Source of the DNA: Candidatus Limnocylindria bacterium
GTDB taxonomy: Bacteria > Chloroflexota > Limnocylindria > QHBO01
Length of the DNA stretch: 64,000 bases
NCBI GenBank assembly: GCA_038250515.1
Contig: JBBSCG010000002.1
Location: forward strand, 4,825 to 68,824
Direction: 5' to 3'
This document shows positions 55,870 to 63,731 of this stretch, in pieces. A program made the position numbers and the translations under genes. The notes beneath the pieces are model-generated. The model worked only from the letters and a program-made list of their open reading frames with translations. It ran no database searches and had not been told where the DNA came from. The first letter of the stretch is position 1, and each line of letters opens with the position of its first letter.

Positions 55870-56499
55870 CTATGCCCTTGGTCCTTCGCCTCGTGCGCGT
55901 GCGCGGTGGCGCGCCACCTTGGCCTGGTTGCCGCAGGTGCGCATGTGGCACCAGCGCCGGCGGCCGGTCGGGGATCGGTCGACGAAAACGAATCGGCAGC
56001 CCGGATTGGCGCAGACCCGCAGCCGGTCGGCGGCATCATCGGCCAGGAAGTGGGCGAACGAGCTCGCAATCGTGGCCCGCGCCTGATCGAGGCGGTCGCC
56101 GACCTGCGCGAACGCGTAGCGCGTGCCATCCGGATCGAAGCGCAGCTGGTGGTAGTGCAGGCCGTGCCGCAGGATGTGATTGAGGTCGCGCAGTTGTGAC
56201 TTGGTCGGCTGCCCACCATGATCGACGCGCTCCGCGACGTCGTGCAGTACCGCGCGCAGATGGCGGAAGCGGTCGAGTCGGCGATCTGCCTCTTCTGGCT
56301 CACGGCGCAGTCGGGAACCCTCGGTCGCCCGGCCGCGGTCGCTGATCAGGTCGTGCTCGCGGAGCCAGGCGAGCAGCGCGCCGGTGTCCGGAAGCGCGTC
56401 GACCGGTTCGCCGTGCTCGTATTCGAGGGTATTGGCGAACTCGACGAAGAGCTTGTCCGAGTGGTCAGGCTCGGGCATCGTATCGTGGTTCAGGCTCAT
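55870..56499 (-). CDS. CGNR zinc-finger (ABATE-family) protein
   Basis: C-terminal CANPGCRFVFVDRSPTGRRRWCHMRTCGNQAKV. Start set to MSLNHD at 56499. Confidence 0.82.
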   Translation of the reverse strand: MSLNHDTMPEPDHSDKLFVEFANTLEYEHGEPVDALPDTGALLAWLREHDLISDRGRATEGSRLRREPEEADRRLDRFRHLRAVLHDVAERVDHGGQPTKSQLRDLNHILRHGLHYHQLRFDPDGTRYAFAQVGDRLDQARATIASSFAHFLADDAADRLRVCANPGCRFVFVDRSPTGRRRWCHMRTCGNQAKVARHRARARGEGPRA

Positions 56500-56502
56500 G
56501 AC

Positions 56503-56585
56503 GTAACCATTGTACCCCACTTGACAAGTTACGGCGCCAGGCGTAGAGTCTGCATGTAACCGCTTAACAGGTGGATACAAGTTAC
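56503..56585. promoter_or_regulatory. two tandem operator-like units GTAACC-N15-ACAAGTTAC (GTAAC-N20-GTTAC), 53-bp period
   Basis: Unit 1 spans 56503-56532 and unit 2 spans 56556-56585. They lie in the divergent region between the CGNR gene and the small-ORF operon. Confidence 0.45.
56521..56549 (+). promoter_or_regulatory. sigma-70-like promoter TTGACA-17 nt-TAGAGT
   Basis: Perfect -35 hexamer at 56521-56526, a 17-nt spacer, and a -10-like TAGAGT at 56544-56549, about 65 nt upstream of the first small ORF. Confidence 0.4.
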
Positions 56586-56915: not shown

Positions 56916-56954
56916 AAACAGCCCGCTCCATCCGGAGCGGGCTGTTTGGCTTCT
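56916..56954 (+). terminator. intrinsic-terminator-like hairpin
   Basis: A 14-bp perfect stem, AAACAGCCCGCTCC / GGAGCGGGCTGTTT, with a 4-nt loop, followed by GGCTTCT (a weak U tract). Confidence 0.55.
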
Positions 56955-57010
56955 AGAATGGCTTGATGCCTCGACCACGTTCCGCGCCACGCAGCAGCGA
57001 CGAGGGCGTG

Positions 57011-58720
57011 ATGAGCAATGCCGATCTCGCGCGGATCTTCGGCGAGATCGCCGACATGCTCGAGATCCTCGGCGAGGTCGTCTACAAGTCGGTGGCGTAT
57101 CGCCGGGTGGCGGATGCGGTGGAGCGCTATCCCGACGATGTCGCGGCGCTCTTCCGGCGCGGCGTGCCGCCCAAGCTTTCGGGCGCCGGTCCGGCACTCA
57201 CCGCCAAGCTCGCCGAGCTGGCCGCGACGGGCGGCCTCGAGTATCACCAGCGCCTGCGCGCGCAGGTCCCCGATGGGTTGCTCGACATGCTGCGCATCTC
57301 CGGCGTCGGCCCGCGCACCGTGAAGCTGCTGCACGGCGAGCTGGGCATCGACTCGATCGAGGCGCTGCGCGCCGCCGCAGAGCTTGGCTCGCTGCGCAAC
57401 ATCAAGGGCCTCTCCGCCAAGACCGAGGAGAACATCCTGGCGGGGATCGCGCGGGTCGAGCAGCGCAGCACCCGCCTGCTGCTGCACGACGCCGACGAGC
57501 TGATGAGCCGCCTCGTCGCCCTCCTGGCACAGACTCCCGGAGTGGTGCAGATCCAGGCGGCCGGCTCGCTGCGGCGCCGGCGTTCAACGATCGGCGACCT
57601 CGACCTGCTCGCCGCCGTCACCGATCCGCCAGCGCTGATCGCCGCGCTTGACGGCCTGCCCGAGATAGACCACATCGTCTCGGCCGGCACGGACAAGTCG
57701 AGCATCGTGCTGCGTGACGGACCACAGGTCGACCTGATGGTCTGCCCGCCGGCGGCGTGGGGCACGCACCTCGTTCATTTCACCGGGAGCAAGGAGCATA
57801 ACGTCGCCCTCCGCGGCCGGGCGCTGGCGCGAGGGTGGTCACTGTCGGAGAAGGGCTTCAAGGTGGTCGACGACGGTCGATTGCTGCTGGCTGCGACCGA
57901 AGAGGAGGTCTATGCCCGGCTCGATCTCGCATGGGTGCCGCCGGAGCTGCGCGAGGACGGCGGTGAGATCCAGGCCGCCGCCAGCGGAACGCTGCCACAG
58001 CTCGTCACGCTCGACGACGTCCGCGGCGATACGCATACCCATTCTGATTGGACCGACGGCGTGGACGGCGTCGAGACCATGGCCCGCGCGGCGCAAAGCC
58101 TCGGACGCGAATGGATGGTGCTTACCGACCACTCCCCGTCGCTCGGGATCGCACGTGGTCTCGCGCCAGAACGGGTGGCGCAGCAGCGCGATCTCATCGG
58201 CCGCCTGAATGTGGAGATGGCGCCATTTCGGATCCTGCACGGCACCGAGATGGAGATTCGCTCCGACGGCTCGCTGGACTATCCCGATGAGCTGCTGCGC
58301 ACCTTCGACGTCGTCGTGGCAAGCCTCCATACCGGGCGTGGACAATCGACGGAGCAGCTCACCCGGCGGGCCCTGTCGGCCATCGGCAACCCGCACGTCG
58401 ACATCCTGGCGCATCCCACCGGCCGGATCGTCAATCGCCGCGAGGCGATGGTCCTCGATTGGCCGCGCGTCTTCGAGGCCGCCGCCGCGACGGGTACGAT
58501 CCTCGAGATGAACGGCAGCCCCCGGCTTGACCTCGATGATGCGCTCGCTCGCGCCGCGGGCGTGGCGGGCGTTCGGCTGACCGTGGCCAGCGATGCGCAT
58601 CGGACCGAGGAGCTCGGACAGCTGCGCTATGCGGTGTCGATGGCGCGCCGCGCCTGGCTCGGCGCCGATCAGATCGTCGCGACCCGATCGGCGGACGCGC
58701 TGCTTGAGCTCGTCAGATGA
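57011..58720 (+). CDS. polX: DNA polymerase X family protein with C-terminal PHP domain
   Basis: HhH N-terminus (NADLARIFGEIADMLE), pol-beta palm (GSLRRRRSTIGDLDLL), and PHP metal ligands (GDTHTHSDWTDG...HTGRG...ASDAH). Confidence 0.9.
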   Translation: MSNADLARIFGEIADMLEILGEVVYKSVAYRRVADAVERYPDDVAALFRRGVPPKLSGAGPALTAKLAELAATGGLEYHQRLRAQVPDGLLDMLRISGVGPRTVKLLHGELGIDSIEALRAAAELGSLRNIKGLSAKTEENILAGIARVEQRSTRLLLHDADELMSRLVALLAQTPGVVQIQAAGSLRRRRSTIGDLDLLAAVTDPPALIAALDGLPEIDHIVSAGTDKSSIVLRDGPQVDLMVCPPAAWGTHLVHFTGSKEHNVALRGRALARGWSLSEKGFKVVDDGRLLLAATEEEVYARLDLAWVPPELREDGGEIQAAASGTLPQLVTLDDVRGDTHTHSDWTDGVDGVETMARAAQSLGREWMVLTDHSPSLGIARGLAPERVAQQRDLIGRLNVEMAPFRILHGTEMEIRSDGSLDYPDELLRTFDVVVASLHTGRGQSTEQLTRRALSAIGNPHVDILAHPTGRIVNRREAMVLDWPRVFEAAAATGTILEMNGSPRLDLDDALARAAGVAGVRLTVASDAHRTEELGQLRYAVSMARRAWLGADQIVATRSADALLELVR

Positions 58721-59496
58721 TGGTACGCATGCTGCGCGGCGGACGGGCCAGCCAGGTGCTCGCTCGCATCGACCGATTCGAGTTGGTTGGTCTGTCGGTC
58801 CTGCTTGCGGTGCTGTGCGCGGTCGGCTGGCTGGTGAGCCCCTTCTGGCTGGCGGTCACGGTCGCGGTGCAGCTGGCCACGGCTGGCGCGGGGGCGGTGC
58901 GCTTGATCGGTCCCGCTCGGCCAGGGCTCGGCTTTGCGCGGTACGCCACGCCTGCCATGGCGGCCGTATCGCTGACGTTGTTCGGCCGGCTCATTCCGGG
59001 CGGAACGGCGCTCCTCTTGACGCCGGTCGCCGCGGTCCTGTTGTGGTCGGTCCTGTGGCTGGAGCTGCGCGCGTCGCGTGGCGTCGGTGCGCGATGGATG
59101 CTCGACCTCGCCCAGGTTGGCATCCTGTTCCTGGCCGCATCGGGGATCTGGCACCTGTTCGGCAGTGACGCATGGCCGCCTCCACTCGTGCTCATCATGC
59201 TGCTCGCCTTCGTGTTGGCGCTGCGCGCCGCCGAAGGTCGCGGCCGCACAGGCATCGAGGCCGTGGGCCAGGCCAGTTTGCACGTGCTCGCGACCGGACA
59301 GATTGGAGCAGCGCTGATCCTGCTGCATCTCCCCGGCGTGGTAGGTCCGGCCGTGGTCGCCGCCGTCTTCCACGCGTGGGGCGGCGCGCTCGAGTCATTC
59401 GAGGAAGGTGCTTCGTTGCGCGGGATTGCGTTCGAGTTCGGGTCGCTCGGCGTTCTCGGCGTCGTCGTGGCATTCCTCCTGCATCAGGCCGCCTAG
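58717..59496 (+). CDS. hypothetical polytopic membrane protein
   Basis: 259 aa with about 7 hydrophobic segments. ATGA overlap with the polX stop. Confidence 0.6.
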   Translation: MMVRMLRGGRASQVLARIDRFELVGLSVLLAVLCAVGWLVSPFWLAVTVAVQLATAGAGAVRLIGPARPGLGFARYATPAMAAVSLTLFGRLIPGGTALLLTPVAAVLLWSVLWLELRASRGVGARWMLDLAQVGILFLAASGIWHLFGSDAWPPPLVLIMLLAFVLALRAAEGRGRTGIEAVGQASLHVLATGQIGAALILLHLPGVVGPAVVAAVFHAWGGALESFEEGASLRGIAFEFGSLGVLGVVVAFLLHQAA

Positions 59497-59538: not shown

Positions 59539-59567
59539 TTGACACCGTGCAGGCCCGGTGCTACAAC
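59539..59567 (+). promoter_or_regulatory. candidate promoter TTGACA-17 nt-TACAAC
   Basis: Perfect -35 hexamer at 59539-59544 and a -10-like TACAAC at 59562-59567, about 75 nt upstream of the 59644 ORF. Confidence 0.3.
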
Positions 59568-59643
59568 AACGCTCGCTTCGCCCGGTTCGCCGCGCCAAGG
59601 GCATTCCTGTGAGTAACCCACCGACTGGAGACGTCAGATACCG

Positions 59644-60498
59644 ATGACGCTCAGTGAGATCGACACCATCAACCGTCAGCGTCGCCAACTGGGCGAAGCC
59701 GCGATCGGCCATGCCACCCGTGGCGACTGGGAGGCGGCCGTTGACGCCAATCGCGAGCTCCTGGAGCTCGGGCCGGATACCGATGCGTACAACCGGCTGG
59801 GCAAGGCCTTGGCCGAGCTCGGACGGGACGAGGAGGCGCTGGAAACCTACGAGCAGGCGCTCGCCCGTGACGGCACCAACCGCATCGCCGAGCGCAACGT
59901 CGATCGGCTGCGCGTCGTGGTCGCGAGTCTCTCCGGAACAGCGCGTAACGGCGGACGCCGCCAGAAGGCCAGGAATGCTAAGCCGGAGAAGGCTTCCGCC
60001 GCCCACTTCATCGAGGAGATGGGCAAGACCGGCCATGCCCGGCTGGTCAACGTCGCGGCGCCTCGCGTGCTTGCGCCGCTGTCGCCCGGTGACGCGGTGC
60101 AGCTCGAGGTCGATGGCGACCAGTTGGCTGCACGCGTCGGCGATGCGGAGCTCGGGCAGGTCGAGCCGCGTGTCGGTGTGCGCCTGGTCAAGCTCATCGC
60201 CGGCGGCAACCGCTACGAAGCTGCGATCACGGTTCTGCAGAGCGACGACGCGCGCATCATCATTCGCGAAGTCTTCGGTCATGCAGCGAACTTCGGGAAG
60301 GTTTCCTTCCCGGGAACGACCGCGCCTCGCCCGGGTGACGTTCGGCCGTACATGAAAGGCACCGCCGTCCGCTACGATGACGACGAGGAGAGCGAAGAGC
60401 CCGACGAAGAGTCCGAGGAGGTCGAGGAGCTCGACACCACGCTTCCGGAATTCTCAGCCGAGCCCGAGCTCGAGGAAGAGCTGCTCGAAGAATCGTAG
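59644..60498 (+). CDS. TPR-containing protein with central beta-rich domain and polyacidic C-terminal tail
   Basis: N-terminal TPR-like repeat (AYNRLGKALAELGRDEEALETYEQALARD). A basic linker. A central region GDAVQLEVDGDQLAARV...GNRYEAAITVL. The last ~45 aa are mostly D/E (DDDEESEEPDEESEEVEELD...). Confidence 0.7.
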   Translation: MTLSEIDTINRQRRQLGEAAIGHATRGDWEAAVDANRELLELGPDTDAYNRLGKALAELGRDEEALETYEQALARDGTNRIAERNVDRLRVVVASLSGTARNGGRRQKARNAKPEKASAAHFIEEMGKTGHARLVNVAAPRVLAPLSPGDAVQLEVDGDQLAARVGDAELGQVEPRVGVRLVKLIAGGNRYEAAITVLQSDDARIIIREVFGHAANFGKVSFPGTTAPRPGDVRPYMKGTAVRYDDDEESEEPDEESEEVEELDTTLPEFSAEPELEEELLEES

Positions 60499-60504
60499 GA
60501 GCCG

Positions 60505-63318
60505 ATGCGCGAGGCTGATCGGAACCGACTGGACCATGTCGTTCTTCCTCGCCGCCTCCCGGGCCTCGCGCTGCTCGAGCGCTACTTTCCGTCACCGGCA
60601 GACAACCTGCTCGATGCCGAGCTGAGCGCATTTGCCCGCCCCGGCGACACCGTGCTGGATCCGTGGGCCGGTACCGGCTGGACGGCGCGTCGGGCGACGG
60701 CCCACTCGATGCGCGCGGTGGCGGCCGATCCGAGCCCGTTCGCGCAGCTGGCCGCCCAGGCTTTCCTGCTCGCGCCTGACCCCGGCGCGATCGACGCGGC
60801 ATTCGCCCAGCTGGCAGGGTCACGCCGTGTGGACGTGCCGCTCAAGCAGCATATCGAGGAGCTGTACGCCACGCGCTGCGCGACCTGCCGGCGGCCCGTC
60901 GTGGGCGACCAGTTCATCTGGCCGCGTGATGCGGATGCGCCCGGTCGTAAGATCTATCGCTGCACGAACTGCGAGATCGGCGTCGGCCGGGGTGATGAGC
61001 GAGTTGCCCCGGTCGATGCCGGGGACCTCGCGAAGCTGGGTATCGACCGTCCGGCCGACGCAGGCGACGAGCCGATCACTGATCCATCGGCCGATGCCGA
61101 TGACGATCTGCCGCCGGCCCCCACTGGACTCACGGCGCAGTCCGTCCCCGGCGGGCGCGACGCAACGTTGGGTGAGCCAGGTGGTCCACCGCCGCCCACG
61201 ATGGCACGTCCCGACCCGCCACTGCGAGGGGGGCCCGACGCAGGACCGCGCTGGGCCTCCACCGTGCGCCCCGAAGCGGTAACCGGCCCGACCGCTGACG
61301 TTCAGCACGGTCAGCACTATCAACAGCTGCGTGACCGATTCCCGGTGCTGGACGGGCACGACGAACTGATCGACGAGCTGCTCGATCTGTACACGCCGCG
61401 CAACATCTACGCACTGCAGACGATCGCCAGCAAGATCGACGCCGAGTTTCGTTCGCAGCCGATGGCGGCCATCCTGCGCCTTGCCCTCGCCGCCTGCCTG
61501 CTGCCAGCCAGCCGCCTGAACGGCTATCCCGGGCGCGTGGCGTCGCTGCGCATCGCCAATGGACACGTGCGCCAGCCGGCCTCCCGCTACCAGCGTGAGG
61601 TGAACGTGTGGCAGCTGTTCGAGGCGGCAGTCGGCGACGTGCGTACTGCTCTGGGGGCGATCGCTGCTGATCGACGCCCCGCGCGCTTCGCGGCCGATTT
61701 CGCCGAGTTGGGCAGCGTCTCGGCAGCCAACGTACTGTGGGTTCGCTGCCGGCCGGCGGTGGTCCGCCAGTATCTGCCGCTCGAGAGCATCGACCTGGTG
61801 CTCGGCTCGGTCGGCGCTCCGGCCAGCGTCGACGAGCTGAGCTTCGAGTACCTGGCCACGGCCTGGCTGATGGGGCGCGAGGCGGCCGAGACGCTGCGGC
61901 TCGAGCCGTTGTTCGGCGCTCCCATCGGTCGCACCGAGGGAGCTGAGGCGGCCGCACTGCGACACGCTCTCTCCTCAGCCGCCGGGGTGCTGAAGCCGGA
62001 CGGCTGGTTCAATGTGCTGCTCGATGGCGATGACGCGGACCGCATGTCGAGCGTGGCCGTTGCGGGCGCCGCGGCCGGCCTGGAGCTCGTGGATGTCATC
62101 GTCCGCGAATCGCGTAGATCGGGGGACGGCGTCTCAATTCACTTCCGCAAGCCGTCGGCAGAGGATCGGCTGCGCGACGCGGTGCAGCCCCGACCGCTGC
62201 GACTGGGCGCGAAGGGGGAACGGCTGACCTATCCGGAGCTTGCTGCGGCCATGGAGGCGGCGCTGCTCGGCCTGCTGCGCGACCGCGGCGAGCCGGCCGG
62301 GCTGAGCCGGCTGGCGGCAGCGGTCCTTCTCGAGATGCAGCGCACCGGCCTGCTGCGCCGCGTCGCCGTGCTGCGAGGCCGCACCGAGCAGTCGAGCGAC
62401 GAGCAGCCGGCCGACACGGATGAGCGTCTCGAGTGCGGCGGACCAGCCCTGCTCTCGATGCTGCTGCGCGAGGAGCTGTGGCGCGAGGACCACCCCTCGC
62501 TGCTGCGGATGGGCGACCCCGAGCGGCCGTTATGGTGGCTGCGCGAACCCGAGCTCGCCGAGTCGCCGCTGGCCGACCGGGTCGAGTGGGCAACCTTCTC
62601 GATCCTCTCGACGGCGGGAAGGCTTGACGAGGCGGCCTTCCTGGATCGCATCTACGCGCTCTTCCCCGGGCTGGCCGCGCCGGACGAGGAGCTGGTGCGC
62701 GCGTGCCTCGGCGCGTACGCGACGGTCACCGAGCGCGGGCAGCTGCGCACCGAAGACGAACTGTCGCGGCGTCTCGATGAGCACGGCCGCGTGATCGCCA
62801 CACTGGCCGACTACGGGCATCGGCTCGGGCTGCGGGTCTGGATCAGCAAACGCGAGCAGTCGCGAGTGTTGGACGGCGGCGTGCTCGGCGATCGGCTGCT
62901 CGACGAGGAGCGTCGGGCGTACCTGCCGCTCGTGCTGCGCGCCCCAGCCGATGCCCTCGGTGCCGTTGACGCGATGTGGTATGTCCGCGGGCGGATGACC
63001 TTCCTGTTCGAGGTGGAGTGGACCGCGATGGTCGGCGAGGCGGTGCTGCGACGAGGGCGGCAGATCCCGGCCGGCGAGCAGCAGGCGAGGTTCCTGGTGA
63101 TCCCTGCCGAGCGTGGCGAGCTGCTGCGGCTCAAGCTCGAGCGCTCGCCGTGGCTGCGCGCCGAGATGGAACGCCAGAACTGGCATGTCCTGAAGTGGCA
63201 GCACCTCGATGCGCTTGCCGGCCGCGAGGGCGCCAGCCTCGACTGGCTGGAGCCGGTGCTCGGCCTCGATCCGCTGATCGAGCGCGGCGGCGAGCAATTG
63301 ACGATCTTTGGCGAATAG
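60505..63318 (+). CDS. 937-aa multidomain protein: methyltransferase-like core with degenerate catalytic motif, CxxC...CxxC zinc ribbon, Pro-rich linker, helical middle, nuclease-like C-terminus
   Basis: GDTVLDPWAGTGWTARRA resembles MTase motif I. CATC...CTNC forms a zinc ribbon. IDLVLGSVGAP occupies the position of the (D/N)PPY motif. LKPDGWFNVLL follows. The C-terminus carries AVDAMWY...FLFEVEWT...RFLVIP. Confidence 0.75.
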   Translation: MREADRNRLDHVVLPRRLPGLALLERYFPSPADNLLDAELSAFARPGDTVLDPWAGTGWTARRATAHSMRAVAADPSPFAQLAAQAFLLAPDPGAIDAAFAQLAGSRRVDVPLKQHIEELYATRCATCRRPVVGDQFIWPRDADAPGRKIYRCTNCEIGVGRGDERVAPVDAGDLAKLGIDRPADAGDEPITDPSADADDDLPPAPTGLTAQSVPGGRDATLGEPGGPPPPTMARPDPPLRGGPDAGPRWASTVRPEAVTGPTADVQHGQHYQQLRDRFPVLDGHDELIDELLDLYTPRNIYALQTIASKIDAEFRSQPMAAILRLALAACLLPASRLNGYPGRVASLRIANGHVRQPASRYQREVNVWQLFEAAVGDVRTALGAIAADRRPARFAADFAELGSVSAANVLWVRCRPAVVRQYLPLESIDLVLGSVGAPASVDELSFEYLATAWLMGREAAETLRLEPLFGAPIGRTEGAEAAALRHALSSAAGVLKPDGWFNVLLDGDDADRMSSVAVAGAAAGLELVDVIVRESRRSGDGVSIHFRKPSAEDRLRDAVQPRPLRLGAKGERLTYPELAAAMEAALLGLLRDRGEPAGLSRLAAAVLLEMQRTGLLRRVAVLRGRTEQSSDEQPADTDERLECGGPALLSMLLREELWREDHPSLLRMGDPERPLWWLREPELAESPLADRVEWATFSILSTAGRLDEAAFLDRIYALFPGLAAPDEELVRACLGAYATVTERGQLRTEDELSRRLDEHGRVIATLADYGHRLGLRVWISKREQSRVLDGGVLGDRLLDEERRAYLPLVLRAPADALGAVDAMWYVRGRMTFLFEVEWTAMVGEAVLRRGRQIPAGEQQARFLVIPAERGELLRLKLERSPWLRAEMERQNWHVLKWQHLDALAGREGASLDWLEPVLGLDPLIERGGEQLTIFGE

Positions 63319-63386
63319 CGGGCAAGCGATCGGCCTCGACTTGACGCAAATCGCTACACTCCATCCGGGAGTGCTGTGGTTCCCCC

Positions 63387-63731
63387 CTACGGCACTCCCG
63401 CTTCGCCCTCAGTCGCGTCGGGTTCAGGCCGGACTCGACGGCGCCCGACCGCCCGCCGCACGACCGTCATCACCTCGTCGACGTACGGTTGTCCCTGGCC
63501 CGTTTCAACGGCATGTACCAGGCAGCCCTCGATGTGATCCTCGAGCAGCAGGAGGGCCACCTGGTCGGCCGCCGCGGTCAGTGCCTCGACCTGTTGCAGT
63601 ACGTCCAGGCAGTACGCCTCTTCGGTGACGAGCCGCTGAATACCGCGGGCCTGGCCCTCGACCCGCTTCAGCCGGTTGACAAGCAGGCGTCGATCTTTGG
63701 AGTAGGCGTGGCGAAAGTGTGCTGGTTCCAT
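63387..63731 (-). CDS. csoR: CsoR/RcnR-family metal-sensing repressor
   Basis: LVNRLKRVEGQARGIQRLV, with Cys...His-x3-Cys ligands (AYCLD, DHIEGC). Confidence 0.85.
   Translation of the reverse strand: MEPAHFRHAYSKDRRLLVNRLKRVEGQARGIQRLVTEEAYCLDVLQQVEALTAAADQVALLLLEDHIEGCLVHAVETGQGQPYVDEVMTVVRRAVGRRRVRPEPDATEGEAGVP

Follow-up and report, generated by a model that had tools for sequence, protein, structure and literature searches.

A two-gene locus near polX in Limnocylindria: a methyltransferase-fold protein without its catalytic loop, with a clamp-type C-terminal motif and a candidate partner

What does a clade of soil bacteria preserve when it keeps, downstream of the gene for a repair polymerase, a large protein with the fold of a DNA methyltransferase and without the loop that would catalyse the reaction? 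The question is raised by two open reading frames (ORFs), here called gene 1 and gene 2, in a 64,000-nucleotide (nt) stretch of DNA from a Candidatus Limnocylindria bacterium of the Chloroflexota (contig JBBSCG010000002.1, positions 4,825 to 68,824 of the forward strand), to which we refer as the window. An earlier note on this DNA had described the pair as a candidate uncharacterised nucleic-acid system; both ORFs exist, and nearly every sequence feature that it listed was found. Gene 2 joins a methyltransferase module that has lost its catalytic loop to a restriction-nuclease-like domain and to a C-terminal pentapeptide that fits the motif for binding the beta sliding clamp, the last being a feature that the note had overlooked. 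Our tentative reading is that gene 2 encodes a domesticated restriction-modification (R-M) enzyme which, with gene 1 as its partner, would be recruited by the clamp for incision or processing of DNA in replication-coupled repair. The architecture of gene 2 and the statements on its evolution are well supported; clamp binding, cleavage, capture of a 3′ end and regulation by an acidic tail are steps that we infer. The two genes are as follows:

59644-60498, plus strand: gene 1, an ORF of 284 amino acids (aa) for a tetratricopeptide repeat (TPR), HIRAN-like and acidic-tail protein
60505-63318, plus strand: gene 2, an ORF of 937 aa for a protein with a dead methyltransferase, a Zn ribbon, winged helices, a nuclease-like domain and a clamp-type motif

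Both lie in the same frame with a 6-nt gap between them. A Shine-Dalgarno sequence, AGGAG, shares bases with the gene 1 stop codon and stands 4 nt ahead of the ATG of gene 2. Long ORFs on the opposite strand had no support and are expected at 69% G+C; the products of the plus strand have full-length homologues by the hundred.

The methyltransferase module of gene 2

Relatives of gene 2 were gathered as 437 word-index matches and as 1289 cluster representatives from an exhaustive search of 50%-identity clusters, the representatives including full-length relatives at 22-44% identity. The closest homologues, 80-84% identical, came from metagenome-assembled genomes labelled Candidatus Limnocylindria or Chloroflexia. 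An AlphaFold2 (AF2) model of gene 2 reached a predicted local distance difference test score (pLDDT) of 86.7 and a predicted template modelling score of 0.86. The methyltransferase module and its insertions comprise:

60592-60864, plus strand: N-terminal part of the module, with motif I VLDPWAGTGWT (aa 50-60) and the acidic residue of motif II (D75)
60868-61014, plus strand: four-cysteine Zn ribbon inserted in the module (C125/C128 at 60877-60888, C153/C156 at 60961-60972)
61045-61308, plus strand: Pro/Asp/Gly-rich spacer of 88 residues (aa ~181-268), an insertion of the Limnocylindria clade
61309-62184, plus strand: helical insert and C-terminal Rossmann half (aa 269-560), with TPRN at 297-300 and ExNxW at 365-369
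61789-61821, plus strand: motif IV remnant IDLVLGSVGAP, where active relatives read (V/I)D(Y/A)(V/I)(F/V)TDPPY

Searched alone, gene 2 gave methyltransferase signals around aa 34-104 that all stayed below threshold, from Pfam N6_N4_Mtase (E value (E) 0.014, 15.8 bits against a cut-off of 26.7), the PADLOC model MTase_II (E 4e-8) and M.RsrI in the PDB (E 0.004), with no NCBIfam model near its threshold and no Pfam match to the DUF1156 N-terminal motif. The S-adenosylmethionine (AdoMet)-binding motif I to which the earlier note had drawn attention is real, but by itself weak, its Pfam score being below the cut-off; the motif and D75 aligned both to M.RsrI and to an active DUF1156 methylase. The gene 2 family profile aligned with the active DUF1156 methylase over aa 33-526 and 392 columns (hhalign 98.8%, E 8.9e-17), pairing motif I, the Cys-rich insert, TPRN with FNERQ, ExNxW with ENNVW, and the motif IV strand, so that a likeness to COG1743 previously described as loose is real homology over the whole module. 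Foldseek with the whole gene 2 model returned class I methyltransferases only from the PDB, led by TrmM, GidB, CcrM, TTHA0409 and CamA, and N4/N6 DNA methylases from viral structures. The homology with the DUF1156/COG1743 Zn-ribbon methylases and with PglXI of BREX type 3 covers the N-terminal ~500 residues of gene 2 and keeps one order of parts, namely motif I, a Cys-rich Zn insert, a helical insert of the TPRN/ExNxW type and the motif IV strand. Unlike those proteins, gene 2 has no DPPY loop, joins its module to winged helices, to a nuclease-like domain and to a clamp-type motif, and is a fixed chromosomal gene rather than an island gene.

The interruptions of the module, a CxxC-N24-CxxC ribbon and a Pro/Asp-rich spacer, are present as the earlier note had placed them. 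All four cysteines of the ribbon are near-invariant across the family, the model has beta strands at 122-151, and hhalign aligned an equivalent insert in the DUF1156 methylases. The spacer is disordered, with pLDDT <50 over most of 191-264 (191-195, 197-199 and 205-264), and is found in the Limnocylindria clade only, being absent from all more distant relatives. The TPRN and ExNxW signatures of the helical insert are near-invariant columns throughout the family.

Where the catalytic (D/N)PP(Y/F) loop should be, gene 2 reads IDLVLGSVGAP, as had been noticed before, and this segment aligns column for column with VDYVFTDPPYGD of the distant active relatives P0339 and P0380, GSVGAP standing where these two and the methylase of locus L165 have TDPPY. 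Among 120 close homologues the motif IV segment occurs in 78 variants and holds no conserved residue; motif I occurs in 7, with VLDPWAGTGWT in 81 sequences. Judged by these counts, the cofactor loop of gene 2 is under selection in the Limnocylindria clade and the catalytic loop is not. Because the catalytic loop is gone and evolves freely, canonical methyl transfer has presumably been lost. DPPY is retained, together with GxG, in three of the 56 full-length representatives (P0339, P0371 and P0380); P0339 and P0380 match Pfam N6_N4_Mtase at ~1e-20, in two pieces, and all three match the BREX methylase model PglXI with E from 1e-45 to 2e-72. On the evidence of sequence comparison the module is by descent a member of the DUF1156/COG1743/PglXI lineage that lacks the catalytic motif by which that family is judged. 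The fold found by Foldseek, the hhalign homology and the lost, unconstrained loop together uphold the earlier proposal of a methyltransferase-fold pseudoenzyme.

It could be argued that gene 2 is still a methyltransferase, acting on DNA, RNA or protein through non-canonical residues that replace the DPPY loop. Such an enzyme would suit the strong conservation within the clade of motif I (DPWAGTG) and of the acidic residue of motif II, but would have to position its target with a loop that varies without constraint among close homologues; some records do call relatives 'site-specific DNA-methyltransferase', while GxG is lost in most other clades and the Pfam score stays below its cut-off. We consider continued methyl transfer very unlikely. 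In public records relatives are named 'hypothetical' or carry one of two functional names, 'site-specific DNA-methyltransferase' at NCBI and 'predicted RNA-binding Zn-ribbon protein involved in translation (DUF1610 family)' at JGI. Given to relatives of the P0264 and P0404 clusters that lack motif IV, these two names are probably annotation errors.

The nuclease-like domain and the C-terminal pentapeptide

Downstream of the module, gene 2 contains the following:

62218-62739, plus strand: two winged-helix-like units (aa ~572-745)
62752-63219, plus strand: R.NmeDI-like domain of the PD-(D/E)xK type (aa ~750-905)
62968-62970, 63010-63012 and 63016-63018, plus strand: candidate catalytic residues D822, E836 and E838, in this order
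63295-63309, plus strand: pentapeptide QLTIF (aa 931-935), a match to the beta-sliding-clamp-binding motif

The AF2 model shows three helices and a beta hairpin twice over in aa ~572-745, which are therefore putative winged helices; Pfam matches to the winged-helix family Stork_head occur in distant members and are weak. In the C-terminal domain the elements follow the order alpha-beta-beta-beta-alpha-beta (helix 753-773, strands 777-780, 823-827 and 831-837, helix 844-853, strand 860-866) with pLDDT >90. D822 opens the second strand and E836-V-E838 lies on the third, giving a D...ExE variant with no lysine. BamHI uses an active-site variant of the D...ExE type. Among the 120 close homologues D822 is invariant, position 836 is E or D and position 838 is E, rarely Q, so that the motif reads (E/D)V(E/Q)WT.

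The relationship of this domain emerged at the level of the family. Homologues carry PF27126 NmeDI_C labels, graded 'weak' or 'faint', in precomputed Pfam tables, and 10 of 18 family members matched the PADLOC REase_II profile PDLC03534 (best E 2e-6), at positions 185-293 of a profile whose 351 positions equal the length of R.NmeDI. R.NmeDI is a Type II restriction endonuclease of Neisseria meningitidis, of 351 aa (PMC2095814). From these labels and profile matches, which are weak to moderate and concern the C-terminal ~150 residues in the family, the C-terminal ~190 residues of gene 2 appear to be related to R.NmeDI. The restriction-nuclease-like domain that the earlier note had read from a strand pattern thus agrees with the strand order in the model and with the family-level match to a Type II restriction endonuclease profile. 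Gene 2 differs from R.NmeDI in that the domain forms the tail of a 937-aa multidomain protein and adjoins no cognate methylase gene.

A methyltransferase and a nuclease on one polypeptide characterise the single-chain R-M enzymes of Type IIC/IIG, and the P0339 and P0380 branch has this arrangement; the features of gene 2 fit descent from such a single-chain enzyme. Type IIG enzymes such as MmeI carry their nuclease at the N-terminus, together with an active methylase of the gamma class. Gene 2 instead combines a dead methylase with a nuclease domain at the C-terminus, and appears to be inherited vertically across Chloroflexota classes.

The C-terminal peptide of gene 2 reads ...ERGGEQLTIFGE and includes QLTIF; the bacterial clamp-binding consensus is QL[S/D]LF or, more generally, QxxLF (PMC12309361). 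Few columns of the gene 2 alignment are near-invariant, and Q931, L932 and F935 belong to these. When Q[LIM]x[LIM]F was counted within the final 14 residues, it was present in 119 of the 120 close homologues (as QLTMF or QLTIF, two residues from the end), in 43 of the 56 diverse full-length representatives, in 39 of 40 relatives of P0257 and in 60 of 68 metagenome homologues (QLPLF, QIPLF and QLSLF, mostly as the very last residues), and in none of 392 control ORFs from the same loci. In nearly all homologues only 0-2 residues follow the pentapeptide, and in the gene 2 model pLDDT is <50 at residues 935-937 and averages 48 over the block 931-937. Members with a dead methylase motif and a dead nuclease motif still keep the pentapeptide, which makes it the best candidate for a function of the whole family.

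Gene 1 and the neighbourhood of the pair

Gene 1 homologues are 70-84% identical, and the sole name given to them is 'tetratricopeptide repeat protein'. The protein divides into:

59656-59946, plus strand: TPR helical domain (aa 5-101), five helices forming ~2 repeats and capping helices
59989-60315, plus strand: HIRAN-like beta-rich domain (aa 116-224), assigned from the AF2 model and Foldseek
60373-60495, plus strand: acidic C-terminal tail (aa 244-284), ending ...EEVEELDTTLPEFSAEPELEEELLEES

The TPR repeat and the Lys/Arg-rich linker that had been read from the letters are both present. TPR_1 scored above its Pfam cut-off at aa 47-78 (E 2.9e-8, 33.6 bits against 27.8), as did TPR_2 (29.7 bits against 27), and the helices of aa 5-101 were modelled at pLDDT ~90. 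The linker, with seven K/R in 25 aa, is poorly conserved and disordered in the model. The best Foldseek matches of the TPR region were domains with a 'carboxylate clamp' for acidic EEVD peptides, those of Hop, FKBP51/52, Cyp40 and SGT. It is a point of likeness that the C-terminus of gene 1 is itself acidic (...EEELLEES) and a point of difference that the protein has only about two repeats; peptide binding by its TPR domain is speculation.

The beta-rich domain was confidently modelled (aa 129-211, pLDDT 80-89) in the order beta-alpha-beta-beta-beta-alpha-beta-beta. It superposed on four chains of 3k2y (lp_0118), which we take to be a HIRAN domain, with E from 2.7e-3 to 7.9e-3 and target template modelling scores of 0.60-0.69 over 94-99 columns; these chains were the only non-TPR matches in the Foldseek top 50 for gene 1, which TPR domains dominate and in which no HLTF HIRAN structure appears. 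When the HLTF HIRAN domain was searched against PDB sequences, 3k2y was the next-best match after HLTF itself, at a weak E of 0.11. Pfam HIRAN gave no match to gene 1 at E<=1, profile searches of the PDB with the beta domain found nothing, and the literature on 3k2y/lp_0118 or on HIRAN with PolX yielded nothing relevant. The HIRAN likeness first suggested for this segment accordingly finds moderate support in the structure comparison and none in sequence profiles.

The tail of gene 1 had been called almost pure Asp/Glu, which overstates its composition (23 of 41 residues are D/E, none basic); it is nevertheless strongly acidic and highly conserved. Conservation runs residue by residue, with most positions invariant among close homologues, and the tail is modelled as disordered. 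In the sister clade described below, the gene 1 orthologue also closes with an acidic tail, ...EEELDEADES.

The pair is flanked on its 5′ side by:

56963-58720, plus strand: polX, 585 aa, PolX core and PHP domain (Pfam)
58717-59496, plus strand: predicted membrane protein of 259 aa, hydrophobic, between polX and gene 1
59539-59567, plus strand: sigma-70-type promoter, with -35 TTGACA at 59539-59544, a 17-nt spacer and -10 TACAAC at 59562-59567
59627-59631, plus strand: ribosome-binding site of gene 1, GGAGA, 12 nt 5′ of the ATG, in a conserved GGAGA block

A scan of one genome per species gave 522 genomes with gene 2 relatives, of which the best 80 loci were all from Limnocylindria; loci that include DNA upstream of gene 2 (n=74) were taken as informative. 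The gene immediately before gene 2 is gene 1 in 74 of 74 informative loci, which run polX, membrane-protein gene, gene 1, gene 2. PolX was found upstream in 71 of 81 loci and was missing only where the fetched locus starts past its expected position. The sister clade keeps the order from polX to gene 2, with one gene on the opposite strand inserted between the membrane-protein gene and gene 1; identity there is 36% for gene 2, which also retains FEVEWT, and 47% for gene 1. The linkage to polX seen in the window is thus conserved across Limnocylindria loci and in the sister clade. The co-occurrence of gene 1 and gene 2 holds in Limnocylindria and this one sister clade, but elsewhere the gene 2 family mostly stands alone.

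The start of the membrane-protein gene overlaps the polX stop codon (ATGA, 58717-58720), an arrangement for translational coupling, and its position is kept in the 74 Limnocylindria loci. The 259-aa protein has no Pfam match, nor has a hydrophobic 293-aa protein in the same position in the sister clade. A CsoR-like metal-sensing repressor gene (63387-63731, minus strand) is convergent with gene 2, and an ABATE/zf-CGNR gene (55870-56580, minus strand) is divergent, upstream of polX, the position of each being conserved in the clade. A palindromic hairpin at 56916-56947, just 5′ of polX, matched the terminator portion of the Thr_leader model on both strands far below threshold (E 0.3-0.4), and is probably a stem of the terminator type that separates the ABATE-like gene from polX.

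The dedicated TTGACA-17-TACAAC promoter that the earlier note had proposed is present, and its spacer ends in TGc, an extended -10 element (TGn). TTGACAC and TGCTACAAC are kept at >=90% in the 74 Limnocylindria loci, where the consensus is CGCGTTGACAC-N-GGTGCTACAAC, and the surrounding intergenic DNA is variable and divergent. A generic promoter scanner missed the promoter because the final base of the -10 element is C. A structured 5′ untranslated region was rejected for gene 1, as neither a stable nor a known RNA structure was found there. Downstream, between the convergent gene 2 and csoR-like gene and overlapping the end of the latter, we saw by eye a 9-bp, G+C-rich inverted repeat at 63366-63400 (CGGGAGTGC ... 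GCACTCCCG, 17-nt loop, without a T run).

The wider family and the function of the pair

Beyond Limnocylindria, the gene 2 family is chromosomal and occurs in Anaerolineae, Dehalococcoidales and other Chloroflexota. Near the sampled family loci outside Limnocylindria and the sister clade there was neither gene 1 nor polX; contig look-ups and one metagenome scan, from which the context of these distant relatives is drawn, gave other neighbours:

recA-recX-rny, divergently adjacent: 11 loci
polA: 5 loci
dnaX: 5 loci
dnaG: 6 loci
a cob(I)yrinic acid a,c-diamide adenosyltransferase-like gene (Cob_adeno_trans) and AP_endonuc_2: 8-9 loci, with DJ-1 in five
an active DUF1156 methylase, immediately upstream: 4 loci

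FEVEWT is kept in seven of the 84 distant homologues sampled, four of them beside an active methylase and three in the P0257 clade, and most other clades also lack the GxG of motif I. Because most members outside the Limnocylindria clade have lost the nuclease motif, the function of the family as a whole cannot be DNA cleavage. The homologues adjacent to recA are dead at both catalytic motifs; their loci (L085, L087, L100, L104, L110, L112, L119, L120, L142, L143 and L163) have a gap of ~130-490 nt, and recA and the gene 2 homologue possibly share a regulatory region. In the four loci with an active methylase (L127 3779-5992, L128 2223-4436, L165 3743-5938 and L168 1008-3089), that enzyme has GxG and DPPY intact and several CxxC pairs and is co-oriented with a gene 2 homologue whose methylase motif is dead and whose FEVEWT nuclease motif is intact, so that the two look like an R-M pair built from two paralogous methylase modules. 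We dropped the rule that an intact nuclease motif is always accompanied by gene 1 or an active methylase as its controlling neighbour, since the P0257 clade has neither. A small Cas4/PDDEXK_1-like gene lies 2-5 kb from gene 2 homologues at L083 (14288-14809), L084 (3875-4474), L130 (11348-11863) and L149 (12151-12669). It was not accepted as a linked partner: it recurs, at that distance, within one clade, L083, L130 and L149 all belonging to the clade flanked by DJ-1, Cob_adeno_trans and AP_endonuc_2, and its recurrence may be inherited synteny only. Database records name no family member beyond generic or automatic labels, and a literature search found no paper on the gene 2 family and none of relevance on an inactive methyltransferase with a restriction nuclease.

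The pattern across the family could mean that gene 2 is a non-catalytic, clamp-binding DNA scaffold associated with the replisome or with repair, its nuclease-like residues being structural leftovers and gene 1 an adaptor whose TPR domain and acidic tail recruit further partners. What is conserved throughout the family is indeed the Zn ribbon, TPRN, ExNxW, the winged-helix region and QLxLF rather than catalytic residues, and ~90% of the sampled distant homologues are dead at both motifs, yet kept beside recA, polA or dnaX. Within the Limnocylindria clade, however, an invariant D822 and a position 836 restricted to E or D form the pattern of metal ligands, the sister clade keeps FEVEWT, and a near-invariant motif I suggests that the ligand pocket is still used. 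We consider a pure scaffold unlikely for the pair in the window.

R-M ancestry raises the further question of whether the pair serves in defence, which the earlier note had left among its options. Neither gene 1 nor gene 2 was matched in plasmid records, and gene 2, the one of the two that was searched there, was unmatched in phage records. PADLOC returned generic methyltransferase and TPR models only, plus a marginal PglXI match (E 0.072), and neither PADLOC nor the neighbourhood revealed BREX or other defence partner genes near gene 2. In all 74 loci with upstream DNA the pair keeps its place between polX and csoR, among housekeeping neighbours (polX, membrane protein, csoR, PIG-L and an ABC transporter). 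The gene 2 family lies outside any described defence system, and a defence function for the pair is not supported: its place on the chromosome is the same in at least 74 species-level genomes, and it has no plasmid match and, apart from the marginal one to PglXI, no system-specific PADLOC match.

A narrower version of this idea would make the pair a domesticated restriction- or toxin-antitoxin-like module, in which gene 2 is a nuclease with a dead-methylase reader, gene 1 is its DNA-mimic inhibitor and a trigger, either phage or DNA damage, frees the one from the other. It would draw on the R-M ancestry (PglXI and Type II methylase matches in active relatives, and an R.NmeDI-related C-terminus), on the nuclease-intact homologues right after an active DUF1156 methylase at L127, L128, L165 and L168, and on the conserved tail of gene 1, acidic and without basic residues. 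The same module would have to occupy a fixed position rather than a variable island, to leave no trace in the plasmid, phage and PADLOC searches beyond those matches just given, and to carry a clamp-binding-type motif foreign to known restriction systems, and the P0257 clade has the nuclease motif without such a partner. In our view this is improbable.

The clamp-type motif, together with neighbours that differ among clades and include polX, recA, polA and dnaX, shifts the likely role to replication-coupled repair. As the nuclease residues and the AdoMet loop are constrained in the clade and gene 1 and PolX are co-inherited, we favour, tentatively, a clamp-recruited incision or processing complex over the readings discussed above. 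In the Chloroflexota, an ancestral R-M enzyme would first have lost methyl transfer, would then have been retained as a vertically inherited protein with the clamp motif, and in most lineages would have lost the nuclease site as well. In the proposed complex, the C-terminal pentapeptide would dock gene 2 on the beta sliding clamp left on DNA at sites of replication or repair, and recognition of DNA, possibly with base flipping, would fall to the dead methyltransferase module along with the Zn ribbon and winged helices. In the Limnocylindria clade the nuclease domain would incise the DNA, and gene 1, as the partner of gene 2, would hold the DNA 3′ end in its HIRAN-like domain for gap filling by PolX. 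The acidic tail of gene 1 would have a regulatory part in the complex, covering DNA-binding surfaces as a mimic of DNA or occupying the TPR groove as its ligand.

Several observations weigh against this reading. The predicted clamp interaction derives from a motif of five residues, and the synteny with polX, recA, polA and dnaX is clade-specific and could in part be inherited gene order. The candidate active site is D...ExE instead of D...ExK, the C-terminal domain of gene 2 itself matched neither the restriction endonuclease profile nor PDB sequences, and in the distant homologues sampled, outside the seven with FEVEWT, the nuclease motif is substituted (for instance FVVRWQ, FAFRQT, FLIRQK). 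In the P0257 clade (L082, L124 and L125) the nuclease motif is intact and neither gene 1 nor a methylase adjoins. For gene 1, the HIRAN assignment derives from one moderate Foldseek match; hhalign of the domain against HLTF HIRAN gave a probability of 0.1%, and the NPYD motif of the 3′-OH pocket is absent, with DGDQ (aa 156-159) in its place by hand alignment. Because the HLTF profile comparison fails and NPYD is missing, we limit the description of the beta domain to a HIRAN-like fold, as far as the evidence goes.

A more specific form would make the pair a post-replicative incision system, MutH- or NucS-like, in which a clamp-riding dead-methyltransferase reader flips bases to find sites that are hemimethylated, mismatched or damaged, the NmeDI-like domain nicks the DNA, the HIRAN-like domain of gene 1 captures the newly made 3′ end and passes it to PolX, the acidic tail gates the nuclease, and most other Chloroflexota keep a nuclease-less, clamp-bound DNA reader. 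We rate a system of this precise kind as distinctly unlikely. EndoMS/NucS is a clamp-dependent mismatch endonuclease of the PD-(D/E)xK type that works with the sliding clamp (PMC6159521). Of the known systems it is the one that the complex which we favour would most resemble in logic, with a DNA-recognition domain and a restriction-type nuclease cooperating with a clamp; no homology of sequence or fold with EndoMS/NucS was detected, and the recognition module of gene 2 is instead a dead methyltransferase.

If gene 2 is a domesticated, clamp-recruited R-M enzyme, then exaptation would have turned such an enzyme into a housekeeping factor that a whole phylum, itself poorly studied, inherits vertically, and the stepwise loss of its two catalytic centres would be visible among living lineages. 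A methyltransferase fold would serve as a reader of DNA and not as an enzyme, and one more protein would join those for which use of the bacterial sliding clamp is predicted. Relatives without the catalytic motif that are named 'site-specific DNA-methyltransferase' make up a recurrent mis-annotation, and bacterial PolX gains a conserved set of candidate partners.

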